Shown piece after piece: positions 3,414-35,145 of a stretch of DNA of 64,000 nt; the stretch's first letter is position 1; each line of letters opens with the position of its first letter. The notes beneath the pieces were generated by a model, which did no database searches, was not told the DNA's origin, and saw only the letters and a list, made by a program, of their open reading frames with translations. The stretch is taken from contig JAZRGD010000099.1 of NCBI GenBank assembly GCA_045644045.1, positions 7,126-71,125 on the forward strand, written 5' to 3'. This stretch comes from Eubacteriales bacterium. GTDB taxonomy: Bacteria > Bacillota > Clostridia > Oscillospirales > CAG-272. Both the position numbers and the translations under genes were made by a program.

Positions 3414-3431
3414 AGCTTTCGTCTCTCCGTT

Positions 3432-5258: not shown

Positions 5259-5280
5259 GTCGTATCCTTTCTTTGTTTAT

Positions 5281-5328
5281 TCGATGATTCGATGATTCGA
5301 TTATTTGATGATTCGATCATTTGATGCC
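5281..5328. repeat. 8-bp tandem repeat, about 6 units (plus strand TCGATGAT and variants), spanning the last codons of P3 and the P3-P2 spacer
   Basis: Read directly: tcgatgat tcgatgat tcgattat ttgatgat tcgatcat ttgatgcc. The P3 stop codon (rc of tca 5317-5319) lies inside unit 5. Confidence 0.8.
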
Positions 5329-7188: not shown

Positions 7189-7201
7189 TTCTCTTTTCTC
7201 T

Positions 7202-7238
7202 CCGCGCCCTCATCCGAGGGCGCGGCTCTTTCGTTTTT
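7202..7238 (+). promoter_or_regulatory. GC-rich intercistronic hairpin (CCGCGCCCTC-atcc-GAGGGCGCGG) with a T-rich tail on the plus strand, between P4 and P3
   Basis: 10-bp perfect stem read directly. The T-rich tract (ctctttcgttttt) follows it only on the plus (antisense) strand. On the mRNA strand the P3 SD follows it directly. Confidence 0.6.
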
Positions 7239-7241
7239 GCT

Positions 7242-9086: not shown

Positions 9087-9128
9087 TTTGCTATACCTTT
9101 CCTTTCGCAGTGTGCTTTACTGTTTGGA

Positions 9129-10982: not shown

Positions 10983-10996
10983 TTCTCTTTCCTCCT

Positions 10997-11032
10997 CGCG
11001 CCCTCATCCGAGGGCGCGGCTCTTTCGTTTTT
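10997..11032 (+). promoter_or_regulatory. Second copy of the same intercistronic hairpin (CGCGCCCTC-atcc-GAGGGCGCG) between P6 and P5
   Basis: Near-identical sequence to 7202-7238 in the same position relative to the flanking genes. Confidence 0.6.
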
Positions 11033-11035
11033 GCT

Positions 11036-12883
11036 TTAATCTACCGTAAGGACTACTTCTCTGTAGCCCGCCGCGTCGGCAATGGCCTTGGCCGCAGGAT
11101 ATTTTTCGTACAAAGCGTCAAGGCTCTCCTCTACGGCGTAGAAGCCGAGAATGTTGTCTTGGTTCGGCTTGTGGTTGCCGCTTGGCTCAATGTCGGTGGT
11201 GGAATAGAAGTTCCGGGTGTGGACATGGTGGGTATACTGGCTTGGCACGTGATACTGGGTAAACAGGGGCATCGCGCAGTTGTCGATGACGTTGTCGTAC
11301 ACGTCCCAGTTAGAGGCCGAGCCGTCAAAGTAGTAACCGCGACGGTCGCGGTGTCCGATGTCCGTAAGAAGGGCAATATTGTCATGCACCGAGTTGAAGC
11401 GAACAGCATAGTCCTTGGTGCAGTTGGCCCCCGTCACGTAGATGGCGGCGCCGTCACGGCAGACGTCCATAAAATCACGGACGTCGTTGTAGGCGATCTC
11501 CACGTTTCTGAGATTGACCTTCTCACCCGGCTCGAAATCTACCTGACTATAACCGTCTCCCGCGGCAATACCCGAATAGGCACAGCCCTTGATGGTATTG
11601 TGAGAGATCTCACCCACGTCGCAGAAGCAGAGGAAGATGGCGGGGGAGCTGGGATAATCGTAAGCGATATTTTCAAGATAATTGTTGACGATCTTGACGT
11701 TATAGTTCTGATTTTGGGGATCTGACCAACCCCCGACACCCACGCGGTAGTTGCCCACCGAAATACCGCACATGGCCACGTTCACGAAGCGGCAGTCCCG
11801 CACCGTGGCGCTCACGGTGTGGTCGCAAAGCATCACGCCGTTGCCGCCCAGATCAAGGAAGGAGCAGCCCTTCACCGTAAAGCCTCTGGTATCCGAGGCA
11901 ACGATGGGAGCGTGGCGCAGCTTGCCCGCGCGGAACTCGCGGTTGGCAAGCGTGCCGAAATAGCCCGTGTCGCACACGTAGGGAGAGGTGAAGCCGGCAA
12001 AGGCGATCCCTTCCACCGTCACGTCCTTCATGCCCTTGAAGATAAAGGCGTTGGCAAGGGTGGTATAGCCAAACCTCATTCTCGCCATCTTTTCGGGATC
12101 GGAAGGGACTACGTAGATGGTACCTGTAAACCAGTCGTAGACAAAAGTATTAGGCTCGGTAAGGTAAGCAAGGTTGTTGACAAGGAAGGTCTCGCGGTTT
12201 CCAATGTTGTTGGCCTCATGTACCCCCTTGACGAATTGCTCGTCAAACTCCTCGTAGAACCGAACGAGGGCATAGGTCTCGCCCTTCACCTCGGCGGTGA
12301 CCGACAGATCCACTTCCTTCACGCGAAGGATATAATGCTGCCATTGCACGTAAATACGGAGCTGGGTGGCACCGACGTCCTTCCCCGCCACCTTTTCGAC
12401 AATATCGATGGGGGCGTACAAGCCCTCCACCTTCTCCTCTCCGCTTCTTTGGGCAGGGAGCAGAGGGAAGGGGTTACGCCACATGGGAGACCTTGCCATC
12501 TTCATGCGCTTCGTGCCGCAGAAAACGTCGTAGAACTTGGGGTACTCACCCGCTTCGTTCTTTTCCAGCTGATATTTGTAATAGGGAGTGCCCTCTACAG
12601 GGGTGAAGTCTGCGCCCGAAATAGATTTCAAAGGACAGACGGTGGGATACATGGAGGGCTTCGCCTTGATGGTCAGGCGGATATTTTGGAGGGCGGGGTT
12701 CTCCTCGGCGGAGAACACCAGGGGCGCGTCCAGGGTGTAGCTTCCCCTGTCAAGCTCCACCGTCACCTCGATCTTATTCTCGGGCGTAGCACCCTCTGCC
12801 AGAGCGAGAACCTTGTCAAGAAGCCCGTCAAGGGCATCGAGCGTCTCGGTCGTACTCGTTTTTTTCGTGATTGCAATAGCCAT
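11036..12883 (-). CDS. Beta-helix array paralog P6 (615 aa), promoter-proximal first gene of the array
   Basis: ORF track. SD AGGAGAGG upstream of the ATG. Motifs YVQWQHYILRVKEVDL, HNTIKGCAYSGIAAG, CRDGAAIYVTGANCTKDYA. Confidence 0.85.
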   Translation of the reverse strand: MAIAITKKTSTTETLDALDGLLDKVLALAEGATPENKIEVTVELDRGSYTLDAPLVFSAEENPALQNIRLTIKAKPSMYPTVCPLKSISGADFTPVEGTPYYKYQLEKNEAGEYPKFYDVFCGTKRMKMARSPMWRNPFPLLPAQRSGEEKVEGLYAPIDIVEKVAGKDVGATQLRIYVQWQHYILRVKEVDLSVTAEVKGETYALVRFYEEFDEQFVKGVHEANNIGNRETFLVNNLAYLTEPNTFVYDWFTGTIYVVPSDPEKMARMRFGYTTLANAFIFKGMKDVTVEGIAFAGFTSPYVCDTGYFGTLANREFRAGKLRHAPIVASDTRGFTVKGCSFLDLGGNGVMLCDHTVSATVRDCRFVNVAMCGISVGNYRVGVGGWSDPQNQNYNVKIVNNYLENIAYDYPSSPAIFLCFCDVGEISHNTIKGCAYSGIAAGDGYSQVDFEPGEKVNLRNVEIAYNDVRDFMDVCRDGAAIYVTGANCTKDYAVRFNSVHDNIALLTDIGHRDRRGYYFDGSASNWDVYDNVIDNCAMPLFTQYHVPSQYTHHVHTRNFYSTTDIEPSGNHKPNQDNILGFYAVEESLDALYEKYPAAKAIADAAGYREVVLTVD

Positions 12884-21272: not shown

Positions 21273-22130
21273 TCAAAGCAGCTTTTTTCGATATTCGGTG
21301 GGGGTCATACCCTCGTGCTTTTTGAAAAATTTAATAAAATACGTGGCGCTTTCAAAGCCCAGCTTGGCGGCAACCTCGTTCGTCGTTGCTTTTTCGCGCA
21401 GCAGTAGCTTGGCCTCCTCGGCTTTCAGCTTGTGATAATACTGTATGATCGTAAAGCCGGTGCATTTTTTGAAGATGGAATTGACGTACGTCTTGCTGTA
21501 AAAGGTATCCGCGCTGATCTCATCCAGCGTGATCCTTCCGTACACGTGACGCTTCAGCAGTGAGACAATATCCTCAGCAAGCTTATTTTCCAATTCCACG
21601 CTGTTCATAATGGGGCGTATAAACTCGCTTTCCTTCAGCTCGTTTCTGATCAGCTTGATCAAAAGCTCTTCAACCCTTCCCACCACCAGCTGAACCGCGC
21701 CAAAGGAAGGGGACGCAAGGGGGATCAGCTTGCGGTTAAAGGGAAAAGCAAAGGCCTTTTTCGCTTCGTTCACAATTTTTGAAAAAAGCTGCCGCTCCTC
21801 GCTTCCCAGCGCGATGACCTTGTCAAGAATGCCGAGCGACGCAGAGGCGGAATGAAAGCAAAGAATGAAAAACGTGGCGGGCGCATTCTCAAGGGCGCGG
21901 TAGGAATGCGAATGAAATGGCGAAATAAGCAAAAGCTTCCCCTGCTCGAGCAAAAGCGGCTCTTCTTCAAGACGGCAGAGCAGCTTTCCACTGTCAACGT
22001 ATACAAGCTCGTAAAAATCGTGCTCCTCGGTGGGATAGGAAAAGCTTGGTGACACCTCTAAGGATTCAATGGTGGTCAGATTTTTTACGGTTACCGTTTT
22101 TTTGATTGAAAAGTTATAGTATTTCCTCAT
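21273..22130 (-). CDS. AraC-family transcriptional regulator (cupin-type sensor plus HTH)
   Basis: C-terminal AraC HTH (...YVNSIFKKCTGFTIIQYY...LGFESATYFIKFFKKHEGMTPTEYRKK). Start chosen at MRKYYNF (AGGAG 7 nt upstream). Confidence 0.85.
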   Translation of the reverse strand: MRKYYNFSIKKTVTVKNLTTIESLEVSPSFSYPTEEHDFYELVYVDSGKLLCRLEEEPLLLEQGKLLLISPFHSHSYRALENAPATFFILCFHSASASLGILDKVIALGSEERQLFSKIVNEAKKAFAFPFNRKLIPLASPSFGAVQLVVGRVEELLIKLIRNELKESEFIRPIMNSVELENKLAEDIVSLLKRHVYGRITLDEISADTFYSKTYVNSIFKKCTGFTIIQYYHKLKAEEAKLLLREKATTNEVAAKLGFESATYFIKFFKKHEGMTPTEYRKKLL

Positions 22131-22312
22131 AATCATTCTCCTACCTACATTGTAGCACAAACGGTGGGATTTTTCAACAGAAAAGTAGAATAAAGTAATA
22201 AATGAATAAAATGACTTTTATTTTTTACCATTTTTCCGCTTGTTTTTCCCTTGCTTTTACTGATTTAATATAATAAAATGTTTTTAGATAACAATTAAGC
22301 GGGAGGTACGGT

Positions 22313-23707
22313 ATGAAAATTTTGGTTGCTGCCTTTCAATGCGAATCCAACAGCAGATCGGCTCTTCACCCCGAAAAGCACGATTTTGAGTATTTCCGTG
22401 GGGAAGAGATATTCGGGAAGCTCGCTGTCAGAGATATTTTCCGCCAAAAGGGCTATGAGGTCATCCCGGCAATATACGCCGTGGCACTCCCCTCCGGCAC
22501 CGTTGAGCTTGACACCTACCGCTTTTATGCGGATCAGATCCTCGACTGTGTAAGAGCCAACCCCGATCTGGACGGTGTGTATATCTTCTTTCACGGCAGT
22601 ATGGAGGTGGAAGAGATCGGAAGCGGTGAGCTGTTCCTTTTGAAGGAGATCAAAAAGCTCGTTTCGGAAAACTGCCTGTTTGCCATTTCAATGGACGCGC
22701 ACGCCAACGTCACGGACGAGCTGTGTGACTACGCCGATATTGTCAGCGGATTTAAGACCGTTCCTCACGTCGATCAGGTAGAGTGTCAGCAGAGAGCGGC
22801 GACGGCATTGGTTTATTGCTTGGAAAATCACGTCAAGCCGCATACGTACACCGTGAGAGTTCCGTTCCTCTTGAAAAACGACACACTTCTAACCGCCTAC
22901 GAGCCTCTTAAGGGGTTGATCGGGGAGACCTTGCGGCTTGAGCAAACGGACGGGATATTGACGGCCAACCTTTTTTTGGGGCATTGCTGGATCGATGCGC
23001 CAAACACGAGTGCCTCGACCGTCGTAACCGCGCTCGATCGGGAAACGGCGAAAAAAACGGCCGAAGAGCTTGCCAACAAGCTGTGGGCAACACGCCGTGA
23101 CTATCGCTTCCTCATAGAAGCGGAGGCACCCGAGGAATGTGTCAGACGCGCGATCGCGGGCGAGGAGAATCGGATCTTTATCACCGACAGTGGCGACAAT
23201 ACCACGGCGGGCTCCGACGGAAACAGAACCGACCTGTTAAAGCTGATCCTGCGCGCGGCTCCCGAAAAGCCAACCTGTGTAGCGGGAATTACCGATTACG
23301 AAACGGTATCCGACCTTTGGCATCTCGCGGACGGCGAGGAGGCCACGGTAGAAAAGCTTGACGGAATACGCGGGCGCATCAAGGCGCACGGCGAGATCCT
23401 CGGCTGGACGAAGGAGATCATCGGCAGAAGCCTGACGGTCTCGTTCGGTTGCGTTGACGTCGTTTTCACGGAATACAGAAGCGCTTTTATCGAGAAGGGG
23501 AATTTTGACCTGGCAAACGTGGATCTTCTCTCCTATCGAATCGTCGTCGTCAAGCTCGGTTATCTTTTTACCGAGCTGAAGCCCTTTGCCGACAGAGAGC
23601 TGTTTGCGCTTTCGGACGGAGCAAGCTGCGTGGAGCTTTCTCGGCTCGGACTGACCAAAATCATTCGTCCCATGTTCCCGCTCGATGATTTCGAGTGGAA
23701 AGCATAA
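22313..23707 (+). CDS. M81-family (MlrC-like) metallopeptidase
   Basis: The N-terminal MKILVAAFQCESNS pattern resembles the MlrC DUF1485 start (I..GGF.HETN.F). Length is ~460 aa. Recognised by eye only. Confidence 0.55.
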   Translation: MKILVAAFQCESNSRSALHPEKHDFEYFRGEEIFGKLAVRDIFRQKGYEVIPAIYAVALPSGTVELDTYRFYADQILDCVRANPDLDGVYIFFHGSMEVEEIGSGELFLLKEIKKLVSENCLFAISMDAHANVTDELCDYADIVSGFKTVPHVDQVECQQRAATALVYCLENHVKPHTYTVRVPFLLKNDTLLTAYEPLKGLIGETLRLEQTDGILTANLFLGHCWIDAPNTSASTVVTALDRETAKKTAEELANKLWATRRDYRFLIEAEAPEECVRRAIAGEENRIFITDSGDNTTAGSDGNRTDLLKLILRAAPEKPTCVAGITDYETVSDLWHLADGEEATVEKLDGIRGRIKAHGEILGWTKEIIGRSLTVSFGCVDVVFTEYRSAFIEKGNFDLANVDLLSYRIVVVKLGYLFTELKPFADRELFALSDGASCVELSRLGLTKIIRPMFPLDDFEWKA

Positions 23708-23732
23708 ATAATATTTTTTGGAGGAAAACAAA

Positions 23733-24908
23733 ATGGCTTATTACAACAAGCAAGAAACCGAAAAGAGAGTTGCAAAGGTCGTCAAGCTTCTCAACGAGAA
23801 GGACACCGATATTGCAATCATCTATTTTGACGAGTTGAACGTGGCAAACGGCTGGTATCTGACCGGTTGGTGCGGTCAATTTGAAAAGGGTGCCGTTCTC
23901 GTAGGAAGAGACGGAACCACGATGCTTCTCGGCGGCCCCGAAAGCGAGCCCTTCGCAAAGCAGGATTCCGCGATCACCGACGTTCGCTGCTTCCCCGTAT
24001 TTATGGTGCCCGACGAGGAATATCCTTTGGCGACCATCATCAGCTTCAGCGATCTTTTCGCGGAGCTTTCCGAGAAATTCCCCGTAAAGAAGGTCGGTCT
24101 TGTCGGCACGACGGATATGCCCTACGCAGTACATCAGGACCTGGTAAAGGGCTTTGAGGGCTGTGAGATCGTAGACTTGACCGACGATTATTTGAAGTTC
24201 CGCTACGTCAAGAGCGATTGGGAGGTCGAGCAGGCCCGTCAAGCGACTCAGCTTGCCTGCAAGGCATACAAGGCAATGGCGGAAAAGGTCAAAGCGGGCA
24301 ACAAGGAGTACGAGGTCGCCGCGGCAGGCGAGGCAGTATGCCGTGAGAACGGTGCTGACAGCTTTGCCTATCGCACCATCGTCGGCAGTGGCATCCGCTC
24401 CAACGCCGTTGTTCCTACGGCCACCAACAAGATCATGGAGAACGGCGAGATGGTGATGCTCGGTATCGCGCCTCGCATCAACGGCTACGCAGGTACCTTT
24501 GGGCATACCGTTCCCGTCAGTGGAGAATACACCGCGGAGCAGAAAAAGTGCCTCATCGATATGATTGAGGTCATGAAGCTCACCAAAAGCATGCTGAAGA
24601 TCGGCAATAGCGGAAGACAGATCGATGCCGAGGGCAGAAAGCTGTACGAGCGTGGCGGCTATTTGAAATATCTCGTATGTCCCTTCGCACACACGATGGG
24701 CTTGATGGAAGCCGAGGCACCCTTCTTTGGCCCCAACAGTGACGACGTATTAGAGAAGAATATGATCGTAAACGTGGACGTCAGCTTCTTCGGACACCCC
24801 ACCCTCAACGGACTTCGTGTGGAGACCTGCTACGTGATCACCGAAAACGGCGCGGAGCCGCTCTGCCCCGAATTTGAAGAAGAGCTTTTCAATTACGTAA
24901 AAGATTAA
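23733..24908 (+). CDS. M24-family metallopeptidase (Xaa-Pro peptidase/creatinase-like)
   Basis: Pita-bread-fold-like region (...FAYRTIVGSGIRSNAVVPTATNKIMENGEMVMLGIAPRINGYAGTFGHT...). ATG at 23733 with GGAGGA upstream. Confidence 0.7.
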   Translation: MAYYNKQETEKRVAKVVKLLNEKDTDIAIIYFDELNVANGWYLTGWCGQFEKGAVLVGRDGTTMLLGGPESEPFAKQDSAITDVRCFPVFMVPDEEYPLATIISFSDLFAELSEKFPVKKVGLVGTTDMPYAVHQDLVKGFEGCEIVDLTDDYLKFRYVKSDWEVEQARQATQLACKAYKAMAEKVKAGNKEYEVAAAGEAVCRENGADSFAYRTIVGSGIRSNAVVPTATNKIMENGEMVMLGIAPRINGYAGTFGHTVPVSGEYTAEQKKCLIDMIEVMKLTKSMLKIGNSGRQIDAEGRKLYERGGYLKYLVCPFAHTMGLMEAEAPFFGPNSDDVLEKNMIVNVDVSFFGHPTLNGLRVETCYVITENGAEPLCPEFEEELFNYVKD

Positions 24909-24921
24909 GGAGGAGCGGAAA

Positions 24922-25287
24922 ATGAAAAACGGAAAGAAAAATTGGGTATTTTGTGACGGCGATCTTCCTCCCTGCGGAAACGACCCCTCGTTTCCGGGTC
25001 ACGAGGCACTGATGATCACCAACGTTTCGAAAAAGGACGCGAAGATCAGGATCAAGGTCCTGTTCGTGGACGAGGCCCCCTACGATCAGATCACCATCGA
25101 TCTTGCCGCTGAGCGTACGACCTGTTTAAGACTCGACGGCCCCATCGGCAACGAGGGCTATCAGATCCCCTTCGGCCAATACGCGTTGCACGTGATCTCC
25201 AACGTTCCCGTGTGTGCCTGCTTTGGCAGACTTGACGTGAGACAGGCCAATATGGCGTATTACAGTCTGTCCGGCTACGGATTTTAA
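24922..25287 (+). CDS. Sensory-rhodopsin-transducer (ASRT)-family small beta-sandwich protein
   Basis: 121 aa. The pattern W...G.LPP.GN.P...HE...I.N....DA.I.I...F.D..P......L.A.RT..LRL......IP....A..I.SNVP....GRLD.RQ matches my recollection of Anabaena ASRT. Confidence 0.55.
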   Translation: MKNGKKNWVFCDGDLPPCGNDPSFPGHEALMITNVSKKDAKIRIKVLFVDEAPYDQITIDLAAERTTCLRLDGPIGNEGYQIPFGQYALHVISNVPVCACFGRLDVRQANMAYYSLSGYGF

Positions 25288-25303
25288 TTCACAAAATATA
25301 AGA

Positions 25304-25341
25304 AAAGATGCCAACCGTAGGTTGGCATCTTTCGTTTTTTT
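25304..25341. terminator. Bidirectional rho-independent terminator
   Basis: AAAGATGCCAACC-gta-GGTTGGCATCTTT followed by cgttttttt. It sits between convergent genes. Confidence 0.8.
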
Positions 25342-25381: not shown

Positions 25382-26497
25382 TTATTTTTTCTTGAACACT
25401 TCCTTGACGGCGTCGAGGTAGCCGTAGCCGTAAAGGTTGTCGGGCTCCAGATAGCTGGTCTCCGTCCACTCGTTCCAAGAGTTGACCGTCACAAGACGCG
25501 GCCGATCAGGATGCTCGTCCAAATATTTTTTCGCCATCCGCAAGGCCTTTTCTATCTGCTCAGGCGTGTTGTTGGTCACCACCCGTGGGCGAAATTGCCG
25601 ATAGCGGGGATTGTTATCCCATCCGCAGGAAATGTGAGGAATATACGGAACGGTATATGCGGCATCGATTCGATCCCATTCCTTCTTTACGTCCGAGAGG
25701 ATCTCCGTGTAATCCCTATTCACATCAGTAAAATGCACGAACTGATAATGGGTCACACTATCTACCTCCAACAAGGACACAATGTCCTTAGTAGACCCTT
25801 GCATGTTGGAGTCGAAGCCGCTCAGATCCACCGTCTTTTCGCCCCATATGGTAATCTGCAAATGCAGGTCGGGAAATCCCGCAAGCCTGGTTTGCTCTCG
25901 GAACCATGCGATGGCCTCCTTGGTGCTTTGGATGCCGCCAAGACCGGATATCAGATTCTTTATGTCGTATATCATAAACACAGGCGCGCCGTCTATTTTG
26001 TAATAATTCGGCTGCTTAAAATATTTTTCGATGACCCTTTTGGCCACCGTCTCAAACCCTGCGCGCCCCACCGCACCTTGCCATATGACCGTTTTTCCGC
26101 ATTCGTCTGACAGCTCCCTATTCCAGCAGTGGTTGGCATCGTGATTCGCCCACATCAGATAAAATTTCATTTTTTCTCTGTTGTCTGCCTGTAAAAAGCC
26201 GTCGTTCAGACAATTCTCAAGAAACGGACGGTTGTCATACCAGTACCAATCATAAATAAACACGTTCACACCGTGAGAAACAGCAGCCTCGATCTGCTCC
26301 TTCATCACGGCAGGATCTGCCTCGTTTTGATACCCCCAAAGGGGCTTCCTGCTCCAAAAATATCCGTTTTCCTTGGGCATACTGTTTTTTACGGTCTGCC
26401 ATTCGCCTATCCCCTCGGGCCAAAACATTCTTGTTCTCGGCTCATCCCCTGTGTAGGCAGGCCAAACGTAGGCCGCAACGTCGTATTTTTTATCCAT
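25382..26497 (-). CDS. GH99-like / WbsX-family glycoside hydrolase-like protein, copy A (371 aa)
   Basis: MDKKYDVAAYVWPAYTGDEPRTRMFWPEG.GEWQTVKN..., ...VNVFIYDWYWYD.RPFLE..L, ...NSWNEWTETSYLEPD: the characteristic WbsX/GH99-like pattern. No signal peptide. Confidence 0.75.
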   Translation of the reverse strand: MDKKYDVAAYVWPAYTGDEPRTRMFWPEGIGEWQTVKNSMPKENGYFWSRKPLWGYQNEADPAVMKEQIEAAVSHGVNVFIYDWYWYDNRPFLENCLNDGFLQADNREKMKFYLMWANHDANHCWNRELSDECGKTVIWQGAVGRAGFETVAKRVIEKYFKQPNYYKIDGAPVFMIYDIKNLISGLGGIQSTKEAIAWFREQTRLAGFPDLHLQITIWGEKTVDLSGFDSNMQGSTKDIVSLLEVDSVTHYQFVHFTDVNRDYTEILSDVKKEWDRIDAAYTVPYIPHISCGWDNNPRYRQFRPRVVTNNTPEQIEKALRMAKKYLDEHPDRPRLVTVNSWNEWTETSYLEPDNLYGYGYLDAVKEVFKKK

Positions 26498-26521: not shown

Positions 26522-28771
26522 TTATATCGAAACCCGAACACGTATCGTAAGAGTATCCTCGTCCCGTTCTTCCTTGATTTCCGTAATGCTTTGTATGGCA
26601 AGCGTGTATGCCATGCCCAACGGAACTCTCGCCGTATATTCGAAGCCGCCGTCAATTTTTGTCCAAGCGGCCTCTATCCTTCCTTTTTCCGCATCGTAAT
26701 GACCGCGAGCCGAGGTGATTTTGCCGCTTTCATCAAATACAGGAGCAAAAATGACCCTTTGAAAGCCACCCTCCTCAGCGTGTCGGATGCCAAGGCAATA
26801 TTCATACATCCATTCCACGCACGAGCCAAAGGAATAGTGATTGAAGGAATTCATCCCTTTTCTGATTCCACCCTCCACGGTATAACTGTCCCAATGCTCC
26901 CAAATGGTGGTAGCACCGTTTTGGATGGAATACCCCCAGCCGGGAAACTCCCTGCTTGTCAGAATGGAGTAAGCTATATCCGCCCTGCCGATATCGCAAA
27001 GCGTAGGTAGCAAAAACTTGGTTCCAAGGAAACCGGTGGTTAATTTTCCACCCGACTCCTCTAACTTGCGCGAAAGTTGCTTTGCCGCCTCGTCTTTGCT
27101 GATGATATCAAACTTGTAGGCGATCACGTACACGCTTTGGGTGTCGGAAAGGAGGATGCCGTCCTTATCCATAAATTTCTGTCGGAAGGCCGCCTTGATC
27201 TTTTCGAAAAGGTTTTTATAATATGCCTCTTCGGTGTCGCCCAAGATCCCACACATAAATGCGGCCAAGCTCGCCGCTCTTGCATAATACAGCGTGGAGA
27301 TCACCGACAAGTCAGACGGTTGCCCCAGCGACAGCCAATCGCCATACGCGCCCTTGCCGCTTCGAATGCCGTCGGGGCTTTCCACCTCATAATAGCCGAT
27401 CAGCTTTTCAAGGGCGGGAAGGTTATCTCTTAACACCCGCTTGTCCCCGTACATCATGAAATGATCGTACGGAATTTGCGCAATGGCCTCGCACCAGCCT
27501 GCCGCCGCATCCCGTCCTGTATAGGCATAGCTTCCCACGGGCGGCATGGGGGCAACGCAGGGGATCACGCCGTTTCCCAGCTGTGCATCCCGCACGTCAC
27601 TCAAGTATTTTTCAAAAAAGGCGCGACAATTCATATTCCACATGGCGCTTTTGGCGAAAATCTGGGCATCCGCCGTCCAACCAAGCCGCTCGTCCCGTTG
27701 GGGGCAATCGGTGGGAATACTTAAAAAATTATCTCTTTGTCCCCACAACGCGTTTTGGTATATTCGATTGACAAGTCCATCCGAGCAAAAAAAATCGCCC
27801 GTCGCAAAAAGATCGGTATACATGGCCTCCGCCCCGACGGAAAGGATCTCGGCTTTGCCAATGATCTTGATCTCGGCGTACTGAAAGCCGTGGTACGTAA
27901 AAAGCGGACGAACCCGCTCCACACCCACTCCCGAAAGAATATAGGTATCCACGGCCTCCGCTTTTCTTAAATTCTCGGTGTAAAGCTTGCCTTCCTTCAG
28001 CAGTTCGCCATGGCGAAGGATGAGCCGCGCGCCCCTTTTCCCTTTTACCACCAAGGAAAGCGCCCCTGCGATGTTTTGCCCCACATTGTAAAGATAAGTG
28101 CTCCTTTTCTTGGATATCAGGGTAGGCGTGAAAATATGCTTGGTAACGATGGGGGGGATCTTTACCTCCTCCAAATATAAGTTTCTCGAAAACTTAAACA
28201 CGCTTTCCTCGGCATAGCCCCAGGCCGTGTCGTCATAATCGGGTGCAGAAAAATCGCCGAGATCCAATCGGGCATCCACCAGCTCGCCCATATAAATGTC
28301 ACTTCGTCTGATGGCACCTGCCGAGGCGCGCCAATCCACATCCGCGCCGATCTCTTCTACCCGTCCGTCCTTGTATTCGATCCTAATTAAGGCCGTAAGC
28401 TCGGTGCGCGTACTGTAGCCGCAACGCTTGAACGCGTAATGAGATCCCAAGTGGCCCACTGCCCAACCGTCGGAAAGAACGATGCCGACAGCATTTTTCT
28501 GTCCAATCTTATCGGTAATGTCATACCGAACCAGCGGAAGCTTTTTGCGATAGTCCACCCATCCGGGCGAAAGATAATCGTCTGCCACAGCCGCCCCATT
28601 CAGGTAAGCCTTGTAAACACCCAACGTACTGACAAAAAGCGTTGCCCGTTCGACCAAGGCCTCCTCTGCAAGAAAAAAACGTCTGAAATAGGATGCAGGG
28701 TTGCCATATTTATCATCGGCCGATTTTTGCCTTCCTGTTTTATATGTGATCCATTTGGATTCGAGTATCAT
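26522..28771 (-). CDS. Alpha-L-rhamnosidase (GH78)
   Basis: N-terminal rhamnosidase-type beta-sandwich (GVYKAYLNG...SPGWVDY) and (alpha/alpha)6 core with TDCPQRDERLGWTADAQIF. No signal peptide. The start overlaps the upstream stop as ATGA. Confidence 0.9.
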   Translation of the reverse strand: MILESKWITYKTGRQKSADDKYGNPASYFRRFFLAEEALVERATLFVSTLGVYKAYLNGAAVADDYLSPGWVDYRKKLPLVRYDITDKIGQKNAVGIVLSDGWAVGHLGSHYAFKRCGYSTRTELTALIRIEYKDGRVEEIGADVDWRASAGAIRRSDIYMGELVDARLDLGDFSAPDYDDTAWGYAEESVFKFSRNLYLEEVKIPPIVTKHIFTPTLISKKRSTYLYNVGQNIAGALSLVVKGKRGARLILRHGELLKEGKLYTENLRKAEAVDTYILSGVGVERVRPLFTYHGFQYAEIKIIGKAEILSVGAEAMYTDLFATGDFFCSDGLVNRIYQNALWGQRDNFLSIPTDCPQRDERLGWTADAQIFAKSAMWNMNCRAFFEKYLSDVRDAQLGNGVIPCVAPMPPVGSYAYTGRDAAAGWCEAIAQIPYDHFMMYGDKRVLRDNLPALEKLIGYYEVESPDGIRSGKGAYGDWLSLGQPSDLSVISTLYYARAASLAAFMCGILGDTEEAYYKNLFEKIKAAFRQKFMDKDGILLSDTQSVYVIAYKFDIISKDEAAKQLSRKLEESGGKLTTGFLGTKFLLPTLCDIGRADIAYSILTSREFPGWGYSIQNGATTIWEHWDSYTVEGGIRKGMNSFNHYSFGSCVEWMYEYCLGIRHAEEGGFQRVIFAPVFDESGKITSARGHYDAEKGRIEAAWTKIDGGFEYTARVPLGMAYTLAIQSITEIKEERDEDTLTIRVRVSI

Positions 28772-29799
28772 ACGCTTTCCTTCTTATCACGCTTGTATCC
28801 TTTGTAAAGATGAACGATATTGATGTCCTCGGGCATATCAAGTCCGTGAGAGCCGCATCCGCCATCTATCTCATGGCAACCGTGATCCATGGCAAATCCA
28901 AGCAAGGTATGGTGATGTTTCCAGTGAGTTTTTATCAGGTTTGAAATAGCACAAAATGCGTGGTCGTTTACCCGCAGCTCCGCAAGCGCCTTTGGGCTCT
29001 CAGGACCGTTTGCGTGCATCATAGCGTCATAATTTCCGTTGTAGATCGCAATGAAGTCGTGTTCATCGTGCAGTATGATCTCCGCCACCTTTGCGTTGAC
29101 CTCCTCGATCCCGCCTTCGTCAAAATGGTAGTAGTCCATATTACGATGGAGGAAAATCTTTGCCAGACTGCATTCCTGATAGGTGATCAGCGCAACCCTT
29201 TTCCCCGCGCGGATGAGTGCGTCAAAGAGGGTGTCTATGGTAATGACGGGCTTTTCATATTTTTGTATCCCGTGAACGTCGGGCTGTGCGCCTGTATACA
29301 TTGTAGCAAAGCAAACAGGGGTAACGGATGGCATAACGGAGGCCAAATAAACCTCTTTTTCCGTGTGGCTCTTCACCCCTGCCAAATACGTGGGGTACTT
29401 CTGATAGACCCATTGCGCGATGGCGTCGGGATTATACATAACCACTCTATCGACTTTTTCTCCATCAAACACCTTGTCGATATAATTCGCCAACTCTTCA
29501 TTCTTTTTTGCCGCAAAGCTCGGCGGTTCAACTCCCATGGCATAGGCCAGTGCTCCGCATATCGTATCAAGGGAATCCGAATTGTGCTTTTCGGATTTGA
29601 CCTCACCGGAAGAAAGCATTTTGTCAACAGACACGCCAAAGATATCCTTTAATCTGAGAAGATTGTCAAGTGTCGGCAATGTCTGATCCGTCTCCCATAA
29701 GCTGATCGTTTGTCTGGAAACGCACATTTTTTCAGCAAGTTCTTCTTGCGACATTTTTTTAAGTTTTCTTAAATTTAGTATATTTGCACCAATTGTCAT
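28768..29799 (-). CDS. Fusion protein: N-terminal XRE-family HTH plus nucleotide pyrophosphatase/phosphodiesterase (alkaline-phosphatase superfamily) domain
   Basis: The start MTIGANILNLRKLKKMSQEELAEKMCVSRQTISLWE (HTH_3-like) has AAGGAGG 7 nt upstream. Downstream are MPSVTPVCFATMYTGAQPDVHGI (NPP nucleophile-Thr motif P-S-x-T-x-P...TG..P..HG), AMDHGCH and GSHG (metal-ligand motifs). Confidence 0.7.
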   Translation of the reverse strand: MTIGANILNLRKLKKMSQEELAEKMCVSRQTISLWETDQTLPTLDNLLRLKDIFGVSVDKMLSSGEVKSEKHNSDSLDTICGALAYAMGVEPPSFAAKKNEELANYIDKVFDGEKVDRVVMYNPDAIAQWVYQKYPTYLAGVKSHTEKEVYLASVMPSVTPVCFATMYTGAQPDVHGIQKYEKPVITIDTLFDALIRAGKRVALITYQECSLAKIFLHRNMDYYHFDEGGIEEVNAKVAEIILHDEHDFIAIYNGNYDAMMHANGPESPKALAELRVNDHAFCAISNLIKTHWKHHHTLLGFAMDHGCHEIDGGCGSHGLDMPEDINIVHLYKGYKRDKKESV

Positions 29800-29821: not shown

Positions 29822-29850
29822 ATTATAACACGCCCATTCCCATAAGTAAA
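29822..29850 (-). promoter_or_regulatory. Candidate extended -10 promoter (TTTACT-17 nt-TATAAT, the last spacer bases giving TGt before the -10) for the HTH-NPP/GH78/GH99-like operon
   Basis: The reverse complement reads TTTACTtatgggaatgggcgTGtTATAAT, ~20 nt upstream of the SD. Confidence 0.5.
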
Positions 29851-30111
29851 GCACAAAAAACTTGCTTTTTGCCAAGCGTTGCTTGACAAAAAGCGCCCTT
29901 TCCATCCCCCTCGCACAGGGCAGAAAAGGCGCTTGCTTTCAGCCGCTTCTCACAAAGTTGTTTTCATGTTTGAATCGTATGGGAGGGCCTTCTTTCGCAA
30001 AGAACCGCTCTTTCATTGTAGGTCCGGAGGCGAAACGCCTCTCTTGCAAACAGATCACGCAAAAGCGCGTCACCTCACCGCAAGAGCAAGTGACGGGCTG
30101 TATTGTATTTT

Positions 30112-31239
30112 TTATTTCTTTTGATCCTCATCGGGAACAAACACTTGTTTGACCGCCTCTAAATAACCGTACCCATACAGATTATCGGGTTCCAGATAGC
30201 TGGTCTCCGTCCACTCGTTCCAGCTGTTGATGACCACCAGCGGCGCGGGAAGCTCGTGGGTGTCCACGTATTCCTTTGCCTGCAAAAGCGCGGTTTTGAT
30301 GTTTTCAGGGGTATTGTTTTTCATCACGTTAGGTTTGAAGGCGCGGTATCTGGGATTGTTGTCCCAGCCTAAAGAGACTTGGGGAAAATAGAGGCTTCCC
30401 GTGGTGTCCATCCTCTCATATTCCTTCCTGTGATACGCGATCATCTCGGTGTAATCACAGTTTCGGTCGGATTGCTTGCCCATATTGTAGTGGGTCACGC
30501 TGTCAAAGCCCAGAAGGGTGTACACGTCCCCCGCCTCGCCGCCGAAGCGTCCGTCATAATCGAAGCCCTCAAAGGCATTGTACACCGCCTGCAAATGAAG
30601 GCCGGGGAAGCCCGCCTTTTTCACCTCTTCCCTGAAATAGCGGAACGCCTCTCTCACGCCCTCCGTTCCGCCAAAGCCCTTGAACAGATTTTGCATCGTG
30701 TAGATCATAAGCACGGGCTTGCCGTCTATTTTATAATACGACGGATGGGAAAAATATTTTTCGATCCAACGCCCCACCAGCTTTTTGAATACGTCGAGGG
30801 TAACGTCACCGCGCCATATGGTTTCCGTCTCCGTGCTTGACAGCTCCACGCTCCACATGTGATTCGCGTCATGATTGGCCCACATCAAATAGAACTTTAC
30901 CAGATCGTTGTTTTTGGCCTTAAGATAGCCATCGTTGAGACAGTTTTCGAGAAAAGGCCTGTCGTCATACCAATACCAATCGTAAATAAAGACGTTGACC
31001 CCGTGGTCATAAGCGCACTTGATCTCCATCTCCATCACGTCGGGGTTTGCCTCGTTGACGTAGCCCCACAAGGGCTTTCTGTTCCAAACGTAGTCCGCAG
31101 GCTTTTGCGCCGTATTCATGGGCGCATTCTTGACAGTTTGCCATTCCCCATAGCCCTCCGGCCAAAAGATCCTCGTGCGAGGCTCGTCTCCCGTGTAAGA
31201 GGGCCAGACGTACGCCGCCACGTCGTATTTTGCTTTCAT
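30112..31239 (-). CDS. GH99-like / WbsX-family protein, copy B (375 aa)
   Basis: MKAKYDVAAYVWPSYTGDEPRTRIFWPEGYGEWQTVKN... The same motifs as copy A throughout. No signal peptide. Confidence 0.75.
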   Translation of the reverse strand: MKAKYDVAAYVWPSYTGDEPRTRIFWPEGYGEWQTVKNAPMNTAQKPADYVWNRKPLWGYVNEANPDVMEMEIKCAYDHGVNVFIYDWYWYDDRPFLENCLNDGYLKAKNNDLVKFYLMWANHDANHMWSVELSSTETETIWRGDVTLDVFKKLVGRWIEKYFSHPSYYKIDGKPVLMIYTMQNLFKGFGGTEGVREAFRYFREEVKKAGFPGLHLQAVYNAFEGFDYDGRFGGEAGDVYTLLGFDSVTHYNMGKQSDRNCDYTEMIAYHRKEYERMDTTGSLYFPQVSLGWDNNPRYRAFKPNVMKNNTPENIKTALLQAKEYVDTHELPAPLVVINSWNEWTETSYLEPDNLYGYGYLEAVKQVFVPDEDQKK

Positions 31240-32289: not shown

Positions 32290-32389
32290 AAAGTTCGCTT
32301 TACCCTGTAAAAGGTCGTTTTTTTACATTGTAAATTTTCTTTGCGAATGATACAATTAAGGTGTCAAATCAAATAAAAGGAGAATGATC

Positions 32390-33625
32390 ATGGCAATTCC
32401 CGTCCCACCCAAATACGTTCGTGATTTTGAAAAGCTCGGCTTCGGTATGTTCGTCCACTTCGGCCTGTACTCACAGATGAAAAAGGGAGAATGGGTCAAG
32501 CACATTTTCGGCATTCCGAAGGCGGAATACGAAAAGCTGTTCGACACCTTCACCGCCGAGGACTTTGATGCCAAGGAGCTGGTGCGCACCGCCAAGGAGG
32601 CAGGTGCCAAGTATATTGTTCTGACCACCCGTCACCACGAGGGCTTTTCGCTCTTTGATGCCGACGGCGTATCGGAATTTGATGCCCCCCATTCCCCTGC
32701 CGGCCGCGACCTGATCCGCGAATACGTGGACGCCTGCAACGAGGAGGGCATTATCCCCTTCTTCTACCATACCACTCTTGACTGGCATATGGATAGCTTC
32801 AACGATGCCTTTACCTCTTACCTGGAGTATTTGCGCAAGAGCGTGGAGATCCTTTGCACCAGATACGGCAAGATCGGCGGTCTCTGGTTCGACGGTAACT
32901 GGTGGCGTCCCCACGACGACTGGCACGAGGATGAGCTGTATGCCACCATCCGCAAGTATCAGCCCGAGGCCATCATCGTCAACAACACAGGCATCGGCGC
33001 GCGCGGAAAGCTCGGTCACCCCGAGATCGACAGCGTGACCTTTGAAAACGGCCGCGCTCAACCGATGGACAGAGAGGGTGCGCCCCGTTACGTTGCGGCC
33101 GAGATGTGCCAAACCATCAACGATCACTGGGCTTGCGCCGAGGCCGACTTCCACAGCAAATCCACGGGCGAGCTGATCGAGACCCTTTGCGCTTGCCGTA
33201 AGGTAGGTGCCAACTATCTGCTGAACATCGGCCCCACCGAGCAGGGCGGCATCGACCCCTTGCAGAGAGAGCTTCTTCGCGTGGTGGGAAGATGGGCAAA
33301 GATCTTTGGTGAAGCCATCTACGAGACCGTTCCCTGCGGTGTCGAGGGCGAATACAAGAACTTCGGCTTGAAGAACGAAAAGGGCGAATACTTCCTCTTC
33401 GTTCACGATCTTGCCCGCGTGGGCAACGTAAACGTTACGGTGCCCGGCGGCGGAAACGGCCCCAAGAGCTTTACGGGTGTCCCCGCAGGCGTAAAACGGA
33501 TCGCTTGGATGGACAACGATGAAGCCCTTTCCTTCAAGGAAGAGGACGGCAAGCTGACCGTAAACTGCACGGGCTACCCCTATGGCAGAAGCTACGTGGT
33601 ACGCGTGGCCAAGGTCACATTCTGA
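32390..33625 (+). CDS. Alpha-L-fucosidase (GH29)
   Basis: FGMFVHFGLYS...EW, AKYIVLTTRHHEGFSLFD, WFDGNW: canonical GH29 motifs. ATG at 32390 has AAGGAG 7 nt upstream. No signal peptide. Confidence 0.9.
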   Translation: MAIPVPPKYVRDFEKLGFGMFVHFGLYSQMKKGEWVKHIFGIPKAEYEKLFDTFTAEDFDAKELVRTAKEAGAKYIVLTTRHHEGFSLFDADGVSEFDAPHSPAGRDLIREYVDACNEEGIIPFFYHTTLDWHMDSFNDAFTSYLEYLRKSVEILCTRYGKIGGLWFDGNWWRPHDDWHEDELYATIRKYQPEAIIVNNTGIGARGKLGHPEIDSVTFENGRAQPMDREGAPRYVAAEMCQTINDHWACAEADFHSKSTGELIETLCACRKVGANYLLNIGPTEQGGIDPLQRELLRVVGRWAKIFGEAIYETVPCGVEGEYKNFGLKNEKGEYFLFVHDLARVGNVNVTVPGGGNGPKSFTGVPAGVKRIAWMDNDEALSFKEEDGKLTVNCTGYPYGRSYVVRVAKVTF

Positions 33626-33649: not shown

Positions 33650-33685
33650 AAAGCAACCATTTGCAAATAGATGGTTGCTTTTTCT
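33650..33685 (+). terminator. Rho-independent terminator after the GH29 gene
   Basis: AAAGCAACCAT-N10-ATGGTTGCTTT followed by ttct. Confidence 0.7.
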
Positions 33686-33696
33686 CGGGAGATAGC

Positions 33697-35145
33697 ATGA
33701 AGCTCAAAGCATTTTTTACGAACGTTTTAGGAGACAGGGTGTTTTTCCGCAACGCCGTGCGTCTGGCTCTGCCCATCGCGGCGCAAAACCTGCTCATCTC
33801 CTCCTTTGCCTTAGTGGACACCGTCATGGTGAGCCAGTTAGGCGGCATCGAGCTTTCCTCGGTGGGCATGGCAGGACAGTGGGTATGGCTGCTCAACATT
33901 TTCCTCTTCGGCATCGCCTCGGGCTGCTCCATCTTCTTTTCGCAGTTCTGGGGCGCGCGAGACAAGGCGTCCATCCACAAGGTCATGGGTGTGGCGCTCC
34001 TCTTGTCGGTCGGTGTTATGCTTCCCTTCCTGATTCTCCCCATCTTTGCTCCCGAATTTATCGTTTCCTTATTCAATAAGGACGCGGCCGTCGTCGCCTG
34101 CGGCAGTACCTATCTGTCCGTCGCCCTTTGGTCCTACCCCGCCATCGCGGTAAACAGCGCGGTGGGTGCCCTGCTCCGCTCCACCGAGCACGTGAAGCTT
34201 CCCATGGTGGTGGCGGCGTTCACCACCGTAGCAAACGCTACCCTCAACTATATGTTTATCTTCGGCCTCGGTCCCATCCCCGCCATGGGGGTGGAGGGGG
34301 CCGCCCTCGCCACCGTCATCTCCTCTTGGCTGGGTCCTGTCCTTCTCATTCTCATTTCGCTTTTCAAGAAAAACGTCCTGTACGCCTCCCCCCGTGCCTA
34401 TCTGGCGGTCAAGCGGGCGGAATTCGTATCCTATCTGCGCCGCATCCTCCCCGTGGTCTTTAACGAGATGCTGTGGGGCGCGGGCACTCTGGTGCTGACC
34501 ATGATCTACTCCAACATCGGCAAGGACGAGTACGGTGGTGTCACCATCCTCCGCTCTTGCGAGAATATCGTCTTCTCCTTCTGTCAGGGTCTCGGTGCCG
34601 CCTGCTGTGTGATGGTAGGCAAGCAGGTGGGCGCGGGACAGGCCCGCGAGGCGGTCCGCGACGCCCGTCGCTTCACCGTCCTGACACCCCTCTTCTGCCT
34701 GGCTTTGGGTGTCGCCGTCATTCTTTTACGCCATCCCATCGTCACTCTCTTTAATATGGAGGGCAAGCTCTCCGCCGTGACCCTCGCCACCGCCACGGGT
34801 CTGCTCTGCATCTACGGTGCTGAGGTCGCCATCCGCAACGTTCCCTACACCCAGGTCATTGGCATCTTCCGCGCAGGCGGCGACACCTTCTTTGCCACCC
34901 TATACGACACGGGCTGTCTTTGGCTGCTGGCCATTCCCGTGGCCTTCTTCACGGCGAGAGCGGGCGTTCCCTTCCTTTCGGTCTTCGCCCTGACCACCGT
35001 GGCGGAGGACTGGCCCAAGGCGGTGCTGTGCCTCCATCGCTTCTTCAGCGAAAAATGGATCAAGCCCGTCACCGTGGCGGGAAAAGAGGGTCTTGCCCGA
35101 TACAAGGCAGAAAAGGCAAATAAGAAAACGAAAAAAACAGTTTAA
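33697..35145 (+). CDS. MATE-family efflux transporter
   Basis: N-terminal LALPIAAQNLLISSFALVDTVMVSQLG pattern, ~12 hydrophobic segments, ~480 aa. Confidence 0.85.
   Translation: MKLKAFFTNVLGDRVFFRNAVRLALPIAAQNLLISSFALVDTVMVSQLGGIELSSVGMAGQWVWLLNIFLFGIASGCSIFFSQFWGARDKASIHKVMGVALLLSVGVMLPFLILPIFAPEFIVSLFNKDAAVVACGSTYLSVALWSYPAIAVNSAVGALLRSTEHVKLPMVVAAFTTVANATLNYMFIFGLGPIPAMGVEGAALATVISSWLGPVLLILISLFKKNVLYASPRAYLAVKRAEFVSYLRRILPVVFNEMLWGAGTLVLTMIYSNIGKDEYGGVTILRSCENIVFSFCQGLGAACCVMVGKQVGAGQAREAVRDARRFTVLTPLFCLALGVAVILLRHPIVTLFNMEGKLSAVTLATATGLLCIYGAEVAIRNVPYTQVIGIFRAGGDTFFATLYDTGCLWLLAIPVAFFTARAGVPFLSVFALTTVAEDWPKAVLCLHRFFSEKWIKPVTVAGKEGLARYKAEKANKKTKKTV

Follow-up and report, generated by a model that had tools for sequence, protein, structure and literature searches.

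What kind of protein results when an XRE-type helix-turn-helix (HTH) domain is joined to an enzyme-like domain, and why does the gene for such a protein stand at the head of an operon that encodes an alpha-L-rhamnosidase? The question is raised by a 64,000-nucleotide stretch of contig JAZRGD010000099.1 from an Eubacteriales bacterium, referred to below as the window. The fusion gene lies at 28768..29799 on the (-) strand, and an earlier sequence-only reading of the same DNA had proposed that its product regulates rhamnoside degradation. We consider it reasonably probable, judging from sequence comparisons, that the protein is a self-regulating one-component trigger enzyme, in which the XRE HTH is combined with a permuted minimal metallo-phosphodiesterase or pyrophosphatase, of putative activity, of the nucleotide pyrophosphatase/phosphodiesterase (NPP) type. 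The HTH, presumably as a dimer, would bind a dyad of consensus TGTCAAGC-N3-GCTTGACA together with an adjoining element that reaches the -35 box. The protein would in this way autoregulate the transcript headed by its own gene, and DNA binding would change when a phosphodiester or pyrophosphate substrate occupies the enzyme domain or is turned over in it.

The fusion gene is a single intact open reading frame (ORF) encoding 343 amino acids, followed by a stop codon. It starts with ATG at 29799, behind an AGGAGG ribosome-binding site at 29812-29807, and ends with TGA at 28770-28768. Residues 1-65 (29605..29799, (-) strand) form an XRE/Cro-C1 HTH domain. Pfam HTH_3 (PF01381) matches residues 9-59 with an E-value of 2.5e-15 and 56.7 bits against a gathering cutoff of 23. 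In the AlphaFold (AF2) model of the whole protein, which has a pLDDT of 96.1 and a pTM of 0.84, the HTH consists of five helices (residues 3-13, 18-25, 29-36, 44-54 and 58-62) with pLDDT >90. The recognition helix reads VSRQTISLWE, and sequence matches in the PDB include the ICEBs1 ImmR-type Xre, P22 C2 and SinR. Residues 66-75 (29575..29604, (-) strand) form a variable linker, in which the pLDDT dips to 74. Among 121 fused proteins the mean pairwise identity is 32% in the linker, 65% in the HTH and 77% in the enzyme domain. The sequence-only reading had seen a standard XRE HTH in residues ~1-65 and had quoted a set of NPP motifs. The HTH_3 score and the five-helix fold agree with the former, every one of the quoted motifs is found in the protein, and the HMM scan that had been suggested places both HTH_3 and the Phosphodiest family (PF01663) above their gathering scores.

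The rest of the protein (residues 76-343, ~265 residues; 28771..29574, (-) strand) is a minimal domain of the NPP/alkaline phosphatase superfamily, here called mini-NPP, as delimited by PF01663, Foldseek, residue mapping and conservation. PF01663 matches residues 151-312 (E-value 3.2e-10, 40.6 bits against a cutoff of 23), the alignment covering only positions 35-225 of the 342 in the profile. When a profile of 59 diverse members was aligned with PDB entries, D125, T160, D258/H262 and D305/H306 fell on motifs of ENPP3 that we take to be the first Asp, the Thr nucleophile and the two Asp/His metal pairs. In this alignment the family motif "VMYNPDA" corresponds to "FSMDGFR" of ENPP3, "AMDHG" to "LADHG", "YNGNYDAMMHANGP" to "YVEEPDSAGHKSGP", and the nucleophile region "MPSVTPVCF..TGAQPDVHGI" to its ENPP3 counterpart. 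The codon for the nucleophile T160 is at 29322-29320. H318 in the GSHG motif, a position outside the ENPP3 alignment, is taken as the last metal-binding His on the basis of the motif. T160 and the metal ligands D125, D258, H262, D305, H306 and H318 are invariant in 121 of 121 fused proteins, as are H309 and D325. The catalytic residues stay nearly invariant in homologues down to 28% identity.

A Foldseek search with the AF2 model returned ENPP3, ENPP1, ENPP6, XaNPP, PorX and PhnA (phosphonoacetate hydrolase) as the top matches, with E-values down to 3e-9. The matches to ENPP3, ENPP1, ENPP6 and XaNPP have a probability of 1.00 over 220-235 aligned columns at 3.3-3.6 Å. By this comparison the alpha/beta core fold of the alkaline phosphatase type is present. 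An NPP-type active site appears to be complete and looks competent, its metal-site geometry being inferred from homology. The NPPs (XaNPP, 2gsn; ENPP1/3/6), which gave the best Foldseek and profile matches, share with this domain the alpha/beta core, the Thr nucleophile in P-S-x-T-P...TG..P..HG and the two Asp/His metal sites plus the final His. The domain differs from them in having ~265 residues instead of ~380, in being cytoplasmic, in being joined to a DNA-binding domain and in aligning with only half of the Pfam profile.

A further difference from the NPPs is that the canonical C-terminal helix is N-terminal here. The helix in question, SLDTICGALAYAMGVEPP (residues 76-93), opens the enzyme domain ahead of beta-1. 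In a profile search this region aligned to residues 500-537 of PafA, which lie at the C-terminus of that protein. A 32-position profile of the helix alone had eight matches in the PDB, seven of them iPGMs and one a sulfatase. The iPGM matches are situated at residues ~480-528 of 508-552 and correspond to the C-terminal helix. Individually these matches are weak (E-values of 0.06-1.7), yet all are to proteins of the alkaline phosphatase superfamily. The canonical core order, with a 'D-x-x-P-T-x-x-x-L-x-G' helix after the last His, is not found in the domain, and in the AF2 model the chain stops directly after the strand that follows this His. Because the usual C-terminal helix of the superfamily stands at the N-terminus, the domain is likely, although not proven, to be circularly permuted. 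A manually de-permuted sequence did not gain Pfam score against PF01663. We know of no NPP-like domain smaller than this permuted core of ~270 residues, which makes it of interest for the evolution of the alkaline phosphatase fold.

The same architecture recurs widely. A word-indexed search found at least 120 homologous protein clusters with 68-98% identity and a length of ~340 residues. Of the 120 listed, 119 carry both HTH_3 and PF01663, and the remaining one, P0035 (316 residues), lists PF01663 only. In their sources the fused clusters are named in no more detail than "helix-turn-helix domain-containing protein". In a survey that took one genome for each species there were at least 596 matches. 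All of them come from uncultured Clostridia, mostly of ruminant guts, and some genomes hold two copies. The two forms were counted among the best 80 of these matches. Twenty-six of the 80 loci are fused and 54 are standalone genes (~270 residues) that open directly with the enzyme domain; the standalone form is commoner than the fusion. With just the enzyme domain as query, an exhaustive HMMER search (E <= 1e-3) found 574 representatives at the 50% level, most of them standalone proteins of 260-280 residues. The rest include fusions of mini-NPP to various unrelated partners (HAD, GNAT, carbonic anhydrase, GDSL, methyltransferase, SHMT and FGE), and these fusions give no coherent functional signal. 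Database names of the relatives include "alkaline phosphatase family protein" and "hypothetical".

A frameshift or other artefactual fusion is ruled out by the presence of the same full-length architecture in at least 120 clusters and in 26 species genomes. The fusion pointed out by the sequence-only reading is real, widespread and contained in a single ORF, free of any frameshift. No full-length NCBIfam model covers the protein, and searches of the literature for XRE with the alkaline phosphatase superfamily, for PF01663 with PF01381 and for PF14307/WbsX found nothing relevant. The earlier remark that no XRE-NPP fusion had been characterised agrees with the absence of any from NCBIfam, PADLOC and the literature. 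The fusion protein represents an uncharacterised family in gut Clostridia, whose component kinds are already known.

Identity between fused and HTH-less proteins is 60-74%, and the two kinds are interleaved in a neighbour-joining tree. The HTH-less gene of locus L037 (~9935-10843) still has the opening eight codons of the HTH ('MAVGETIR'), after which it continues at once with the enzyme domain; it and the gene of L028 look, from their sequences, like recent losses of the HTH. The interleaving and the L037 gene suggest that the enzyme domain functions without the HTH. Fused and standalone mini-NPP genes also occur in the same genome (L002 and L050 in assembly JAZTWU01; L004 and L053 in assembly CALBJG01), so the two forms are not simple mutual replacements. 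At L013 (1871-3941) two HTH-fused mini-NPP genes, whose products share 71% and 62% identity with the window protein, stand in tandem, 35 nt apart. A related genome has an HTH_3/HTH_31 domain fused to a BcrAD_BadFG-type ATPase, beside a SIS-domain gene (L086, 1-846).

The upstream regions of the fused genes carry the conserved dyad. In the window it has the form TGTCAAGC-AAC-GCTTGGCA (29870..29888, (-) strand; inverted repeat I3), with its centre at about -63 from the predicted transcription start site. It is followed by a second conserved element, AAAAGCAAG-N-TGCTTTACT (29845..29869, (-) strand), of which AAAAGCAAG occupies 29869-29861 and which runs into the -35 box TTTACT at 29850-29845. The extended -10 box TGtTATAAT (29822..29830, (-) strand) scored 10/12 matches with TG in the promoter scan and is conserved in homologous loci. 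An anchored alignment covered the upstream regions of 31 fused loci. The motif is present in about 26 of them, in the arrangement TTTGTCAAGC-N3-GCTTGACAAA(A)nGCAAG, ~8 nt, TGCTTTACT, 17 nt, TGnTATAAT. At 24 of 26 loci the dyad centre stands 50-52 nt from the -10 hexamer, the fixed register being 51 nt upstream of the -10 box. The -10 box itself lies anywhere between 22 and 132 nt from the ATG. The genes upstream of the dyad differ between loci, and several loci have a separate terminator just before it.

Occurrence of the dyad follows that of the HTH. The exact core is found in 28 of 87 loci, all 28 of them fused, and a best-match score of at least 13/16 is reached at 27 of 31 fused loci as against none of 52 standalone loci. 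The consensus dyad goes with a recognition helix VSRQT[VI]SLWE. At L017, where the helix is VNKQTISLWE, the dyad is altered to GTTAAGT-N3-AATTGAC, and L025 (VSVETVELWE) and L047 (VSEDLVALWE) are without the motif. The HTH-less relatives also have no motif, L028 (~3280-3378) retaining a degenerate remnant, TTGTCAACAACTTGACAAA. The motif occurs once in the window, and the sole extra match in the homologue loci is inside a coding region. The dyad is likely, from these comparisons, to be an autoregulatory operator, that is, a protein-binding site tied to the HTH. With the dyad centred at about -63 and the second element reaching over the -35 box of the fusion gene, autoregulation, whether negative or positive, is well supported. 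The hairpin at 29864-29894 was also considered as a plain terminator. This was rejected as the main interpretation because the T-run is not conserved among loci, whereas the sequence and its register with the -10 box are.

The conserved partner of the family is a His_Phos_1 protein of ~188 residues, whose gene starts within a few nucleotides of the mini-NPP stop codon, often with an ATGA overlap. By Pfam or NCBIfam comparison it is nearest to the alpha-ribazole phosphatase CobC, with a score below the cutoff. When neighbouring ORFs were clustered, the gene of this histidine phosphatase followed the mini-NPP gene at 19 of 25 fused loci and at 17 of 54 standalone loci. The regulated unit of the family as a whole would consist of the fusion gene and the translationally coupled, CobC-like histidine phosphatase. 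The two enzymes could act in succession, mini-NPP converting a diester to a monoester and the histidine phosphatase releasing free phosphate from the monoester. Some standalone genes lie in a string of GH20, EEP phosphoesterase, mini-NPP, histidine phosphatase, SGNH esterase and GDPD genes, and a second recurring string is mini-NPP, GDPD and M20. The CobC-like histidine phosphatase is absent throughout the 64-kb window. There its place is taken by the GH78 rhamnosidase and a glycosidase-like PF14307 protein, so that the same promoter and operator would drive these genes. The operator and promoter of the window are, to judge from their sequence, inherited from the histidine phosphatase cassette.

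Several observations count against the interpretation of the protein as a self-regulating trigger enzyme. The Asn of NPPs that contacts a phosphoryl oxygen, which we take to be N111 in XaNPP, could not be identified in the enzyme domain. The segment after HGI is QKYEKP, which contains no Asn, and a conserved Tyr-Glu (Y181, E182) lies roughly where the Asn would be expected. The insertions that form the nucleotide pocket of NPPs are missing as well. The right half-site of the window dyad, GCTTGGCA, has one mismatch, and the dyad precedes a T-run and was scored as a terminator by the scan tool. Its centre near -63 is more typical of activators, so repression would have to come from the second element, which is weaker and lies at the -35 box. 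A metagenome-wide scan for the operator pattern gave at least 120 matches; those listed come from unrelated environments, none of them beside a homologue, and are chance matches. Apart from the histidine phosphatase the neighbourhoods are highly variable and thus carry little pathway information.

The missing Asn and nucleotide-pocket elements are also what would be expected if the enzyme-like domain were a catalytically silent ligand sensor, a pseudoenzyme in an otherwise ordinary one-component repressor. XRE regulators normally bear sensor or oligomerisation domains, and the alignment with PF01663 over positions 35-225 alone is in keeping with such a role. We nevertheless regard a silent sensor as unlikely. 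None of the seven catalytic residues varies among the 121 fused proteins, nor do H309 and D325, and the HTH is less tightly constrained than the enzyme domain. Moreover, HTH-less proteins are interleaved with the fused ones in the tree, and the same histidine phosphatase accompanies both forms.

A compact two-gene cassette with its own operator, set in very variable neighbourhoods, could alternatively be mobile and serve in toxin-antitoxin or anti-phage functions. The XRE domain would then be the antitoxin-like component that autoregulates the module. The HTH resembles RmrA, CapH and antitoxin HTHs, and PglZ, another domain of the alkaline phosphatase superfamily, works in BREX (PMC9757075). 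PADLOC, however, matches the HTH only and has no match to the enzyme domain or the histidine phosphatase, and there is no match to the PglZ HMM. No mobile-element genes were seen, and the HTH-less copies occur among catabolic hydrolases. The adjacent gene encodes no toxin of a known family, being His_Phos_1 or, in the window, GH78. A toxin-antitoxin or defence function seems very improbable on these grounds.

Within the window the fusion gene is followed by that of a GH78 alpha-L-rhamnosidase of 749 residues (26522..28771, (-) strand), which has four Bac_rhamnosid Pfam domains (E-value 5e-102) and matches the NCBIfam rhamnosidase models below their cutoffs. An exact look-up gave no record for the fusion protein or for the 100%-identical GH78 (P0271). 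The stop codon of the fusion gene overlaps the GH78 start by 4 nt, in the sequence ATGA at 28771-28768, as the sequence-only reading had described, and a GH78 orthologue aligns with the rhamnosidase from residue 1. Next is a PF14307 protein (Glyco_tran_WbsX, distantly GH99-like) of 371 residues (25382..26497, (-) strand; Pfam E-value 2e-47), whose gene starts 24 nt past the GH78 stop and has its own ribosome-binding site, GAGGGAG. The sequence-only reading had the 24-nt spacing right, and its label "GH99-like" is corrected here to PF14307, the GH99 match of the PF14307 proteins being sub-threshold at 23 bits against a cutoff of 33. A strong bidirectional intrinsic terminator (25303..25333, both strands), with a stem of 13-14 bp and a T-run each way, closes the operon.

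By sequence criteria the fusion gene, GH78 and PF14307 form one transcription unit, since there is a promoter at 29850-29822, no terminator before 25333-25303, a 4-nt overlap at the first junction and a 24-nt gap at the second. The proposed coupling of the three genes is borne out to this extent. Upstream lies a second PF14307 gene (30112..31239, (-) strand), recognised by Pfam, whose product of 375 residues is 59% identical to the downstream copy (tblastn). A terminator-like hairpin, GCGCCTTTTC ... GAAAGGGCGC followed by TTTTTG (29884..29941, (-) strand; inverted repeat I1), has its T-tract abutting the operator. It would end the transcript of this upstream paralogue, which is accordingly predicted to be a separate transcription unit.

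The predicted transcript shared with GH78 and PF14307 is one reason to suppose that the protein evolved primarily as a dedicated regulator of rhamnosides or rhamnose-containing glycans, sensing a phosphorylated or nucleotide-linked sugar. This resembles the role that the sequence-only reading had assigned to it. Two of the five other distinct GH78 orthologue contexts adjoin phosphoesterase genes (GDPD at L208; Metallophos and PHP at L214), and the recurrence of standalone mini-NPP by GH20, EEP, SGNH and GDPD genes hints at degradation of phosphodiester-decorated glycans. The neighbourhoods of the homologues nevertheless speak against this role. At the 32 other fused loci neither GH78 nor PF14307 occurs downstream, and the 10 kb that follow the homologues are free of both. 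The single homologue locus with GH78 has the standalone form, the GH78 gene lying 3 kb upstream. Among 33 fused loci and eight GH78 loci, the junction of XRE-NPP with GH78 is seen in the window alone.

The GH78 orthologues tell the same story. The fusion gene is absent from all seven of the nearest orthologue loci (69-77% identity), and wherever a regulator is seen near the orthologue it is of the AraC type (L208, L210, L211). At L208 an AraC gene is divergent from GH78, and GDPD (3832-4578) comes after GH78, an arrangement repeated at L209. At L211 the order is PF14307, GH78, TauE, AraC, the PF14307 and GH78 orthologues both being 77% identical to those of the window. At L214 the Metallophos and PHP genes (7357-9891) come after GH78, and at L210 and L212 the contexts around GH78 are unrelated. 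GH78 and PF14307 are a pair in their own right. A conserved linkage of the fusion to this pair is rejected in view of the neighbourhoods of both the fused homologues and the GH78 orthologues. The arrangement in the window is a lineage-specific rewiring and not a trait of the family. Given also that the operator and promoter come from the histidine phosphatase cassette, a primary role in rhamnoside regulation is quite unlikely, and the earlier assignment is not upheld. The link to rhamnose-containing glycans is local, since other fused loci have no GH78 or PF14307, and is unfit for propagation to the annotation of the family. The silent sensor, the rhamnoside regulator and the defence module are all less well supported than the trigger enzyme.

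Phosphoesterase genes (GDPD, Metallophos, PHP, EEP) recur both beside GH78 orthologues and beside standalone mini-NPP genes (L208, L214, L046, L048, L036), and the standalone genes sometimes have GH20 and SGNH esterase genes near them as well. Catabolism of phosphodiester-bearing glycans is weakly suggested by this. Possible substrates include a glycerophospho- or sugar-phosphodiester from phosphodiester-decorated cell-wall or dietary glycans; a sugar-nucleotide or phospho-sugar effector would be pure inference.

The interpretation as a trigger enzyme has precedents. BirA, NadR and PutA combine a DNA-binding domain with a competent enzyme domain in one polypeptide and are autoregulated via an operator in their own promoter. 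The fusion protein has the same two-domain logic and a likely operator at its own promoter, although the enzyme fold and the HTH class are different. To judge by its sequence, it carries a DNA-binding domain and an intact enzyme domain in one chain, the coupling between catalysis and DNA binding being proposed. XRE-cupin and other XRE one-component regulators have the XRE HTH at the N-terminus and an effector domain at the C-terminus, and a palindromic operator lies by the regulated operon (for example PMC7901475). The domain layout is the same here, and the likely operator is also palindromic, but the cupin is a small ligand-binding domain, whereas the C-terminal domain of the window protein is an enzyme fold that appears to have a complete active site. 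PorX, one of the structural matches, is a response regulator with an effector domain of the PglZ type from the alkaline phosphatase superfamily (PDB 8thp/8tfm; PMC9757075), and like the fusion protein it joins a regulatory module to a phosphodiesterase domain of this superfamily. It differs in having a receiver in place of the HTH, indirect effects on genes and a larger PglZ domain. The window protein has no receiver domain and no match to PglZ (PF08665) at E <= 1.

A more far-reaching proposal, put forward only tentatively, is that the family is a class of catalysis-coupled transcription factors in gut Clostridia. The permuted NPP domain would sense its substrate by turnover, releasing or recruiting its own XRE domain at a defined operator, and in the window the system would have been co-opted for the operon of the rhamnosidase and PF14307. 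If this is true, an enzyme of the alkaline phosphatase superfamily joins the short list of enzyme-transcription factors, in uncultured Clostridia that are abundant in the rumen and gut. The system is ready for testing, with a soluble protein of 343 residues, a 19-bp dyad, a mapped promoter, a predicted nucleophile and natural HTH-less controls.

The surroundings of the operon include other genes of glycan metabolism. A GH29 alpha-L-fucosidase gene is situated just past the upstream PF14307 gene (32384-33625, (+) strand) and is followed by a long ORF (33661-35145) that, read by eye, looks like the gene of a MATE-type transporter; together these make up a small glycan-degradation neighbourhood. 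On the other side of the operon, at 21273-25287, an AraC-family regulator is encoded at 21273-22160 (minus strand), divergent from genes for two peptidases, one M81 (MlrC-like) and one M24, and for a 121-residue ASRT-like (PF07100) protein. AraC regulators are also what flanks the GH78 orthologues in other genomes. Farther away, at 1602-12883 on the minus strand, there are six tandem paralogues encoding right-handed beta-helix proteins (PF13229) of 603-623 residues. They have a mutual identity of 53-67% and no obvious signal peptide, and each is shadowed by a long antisense ORF.

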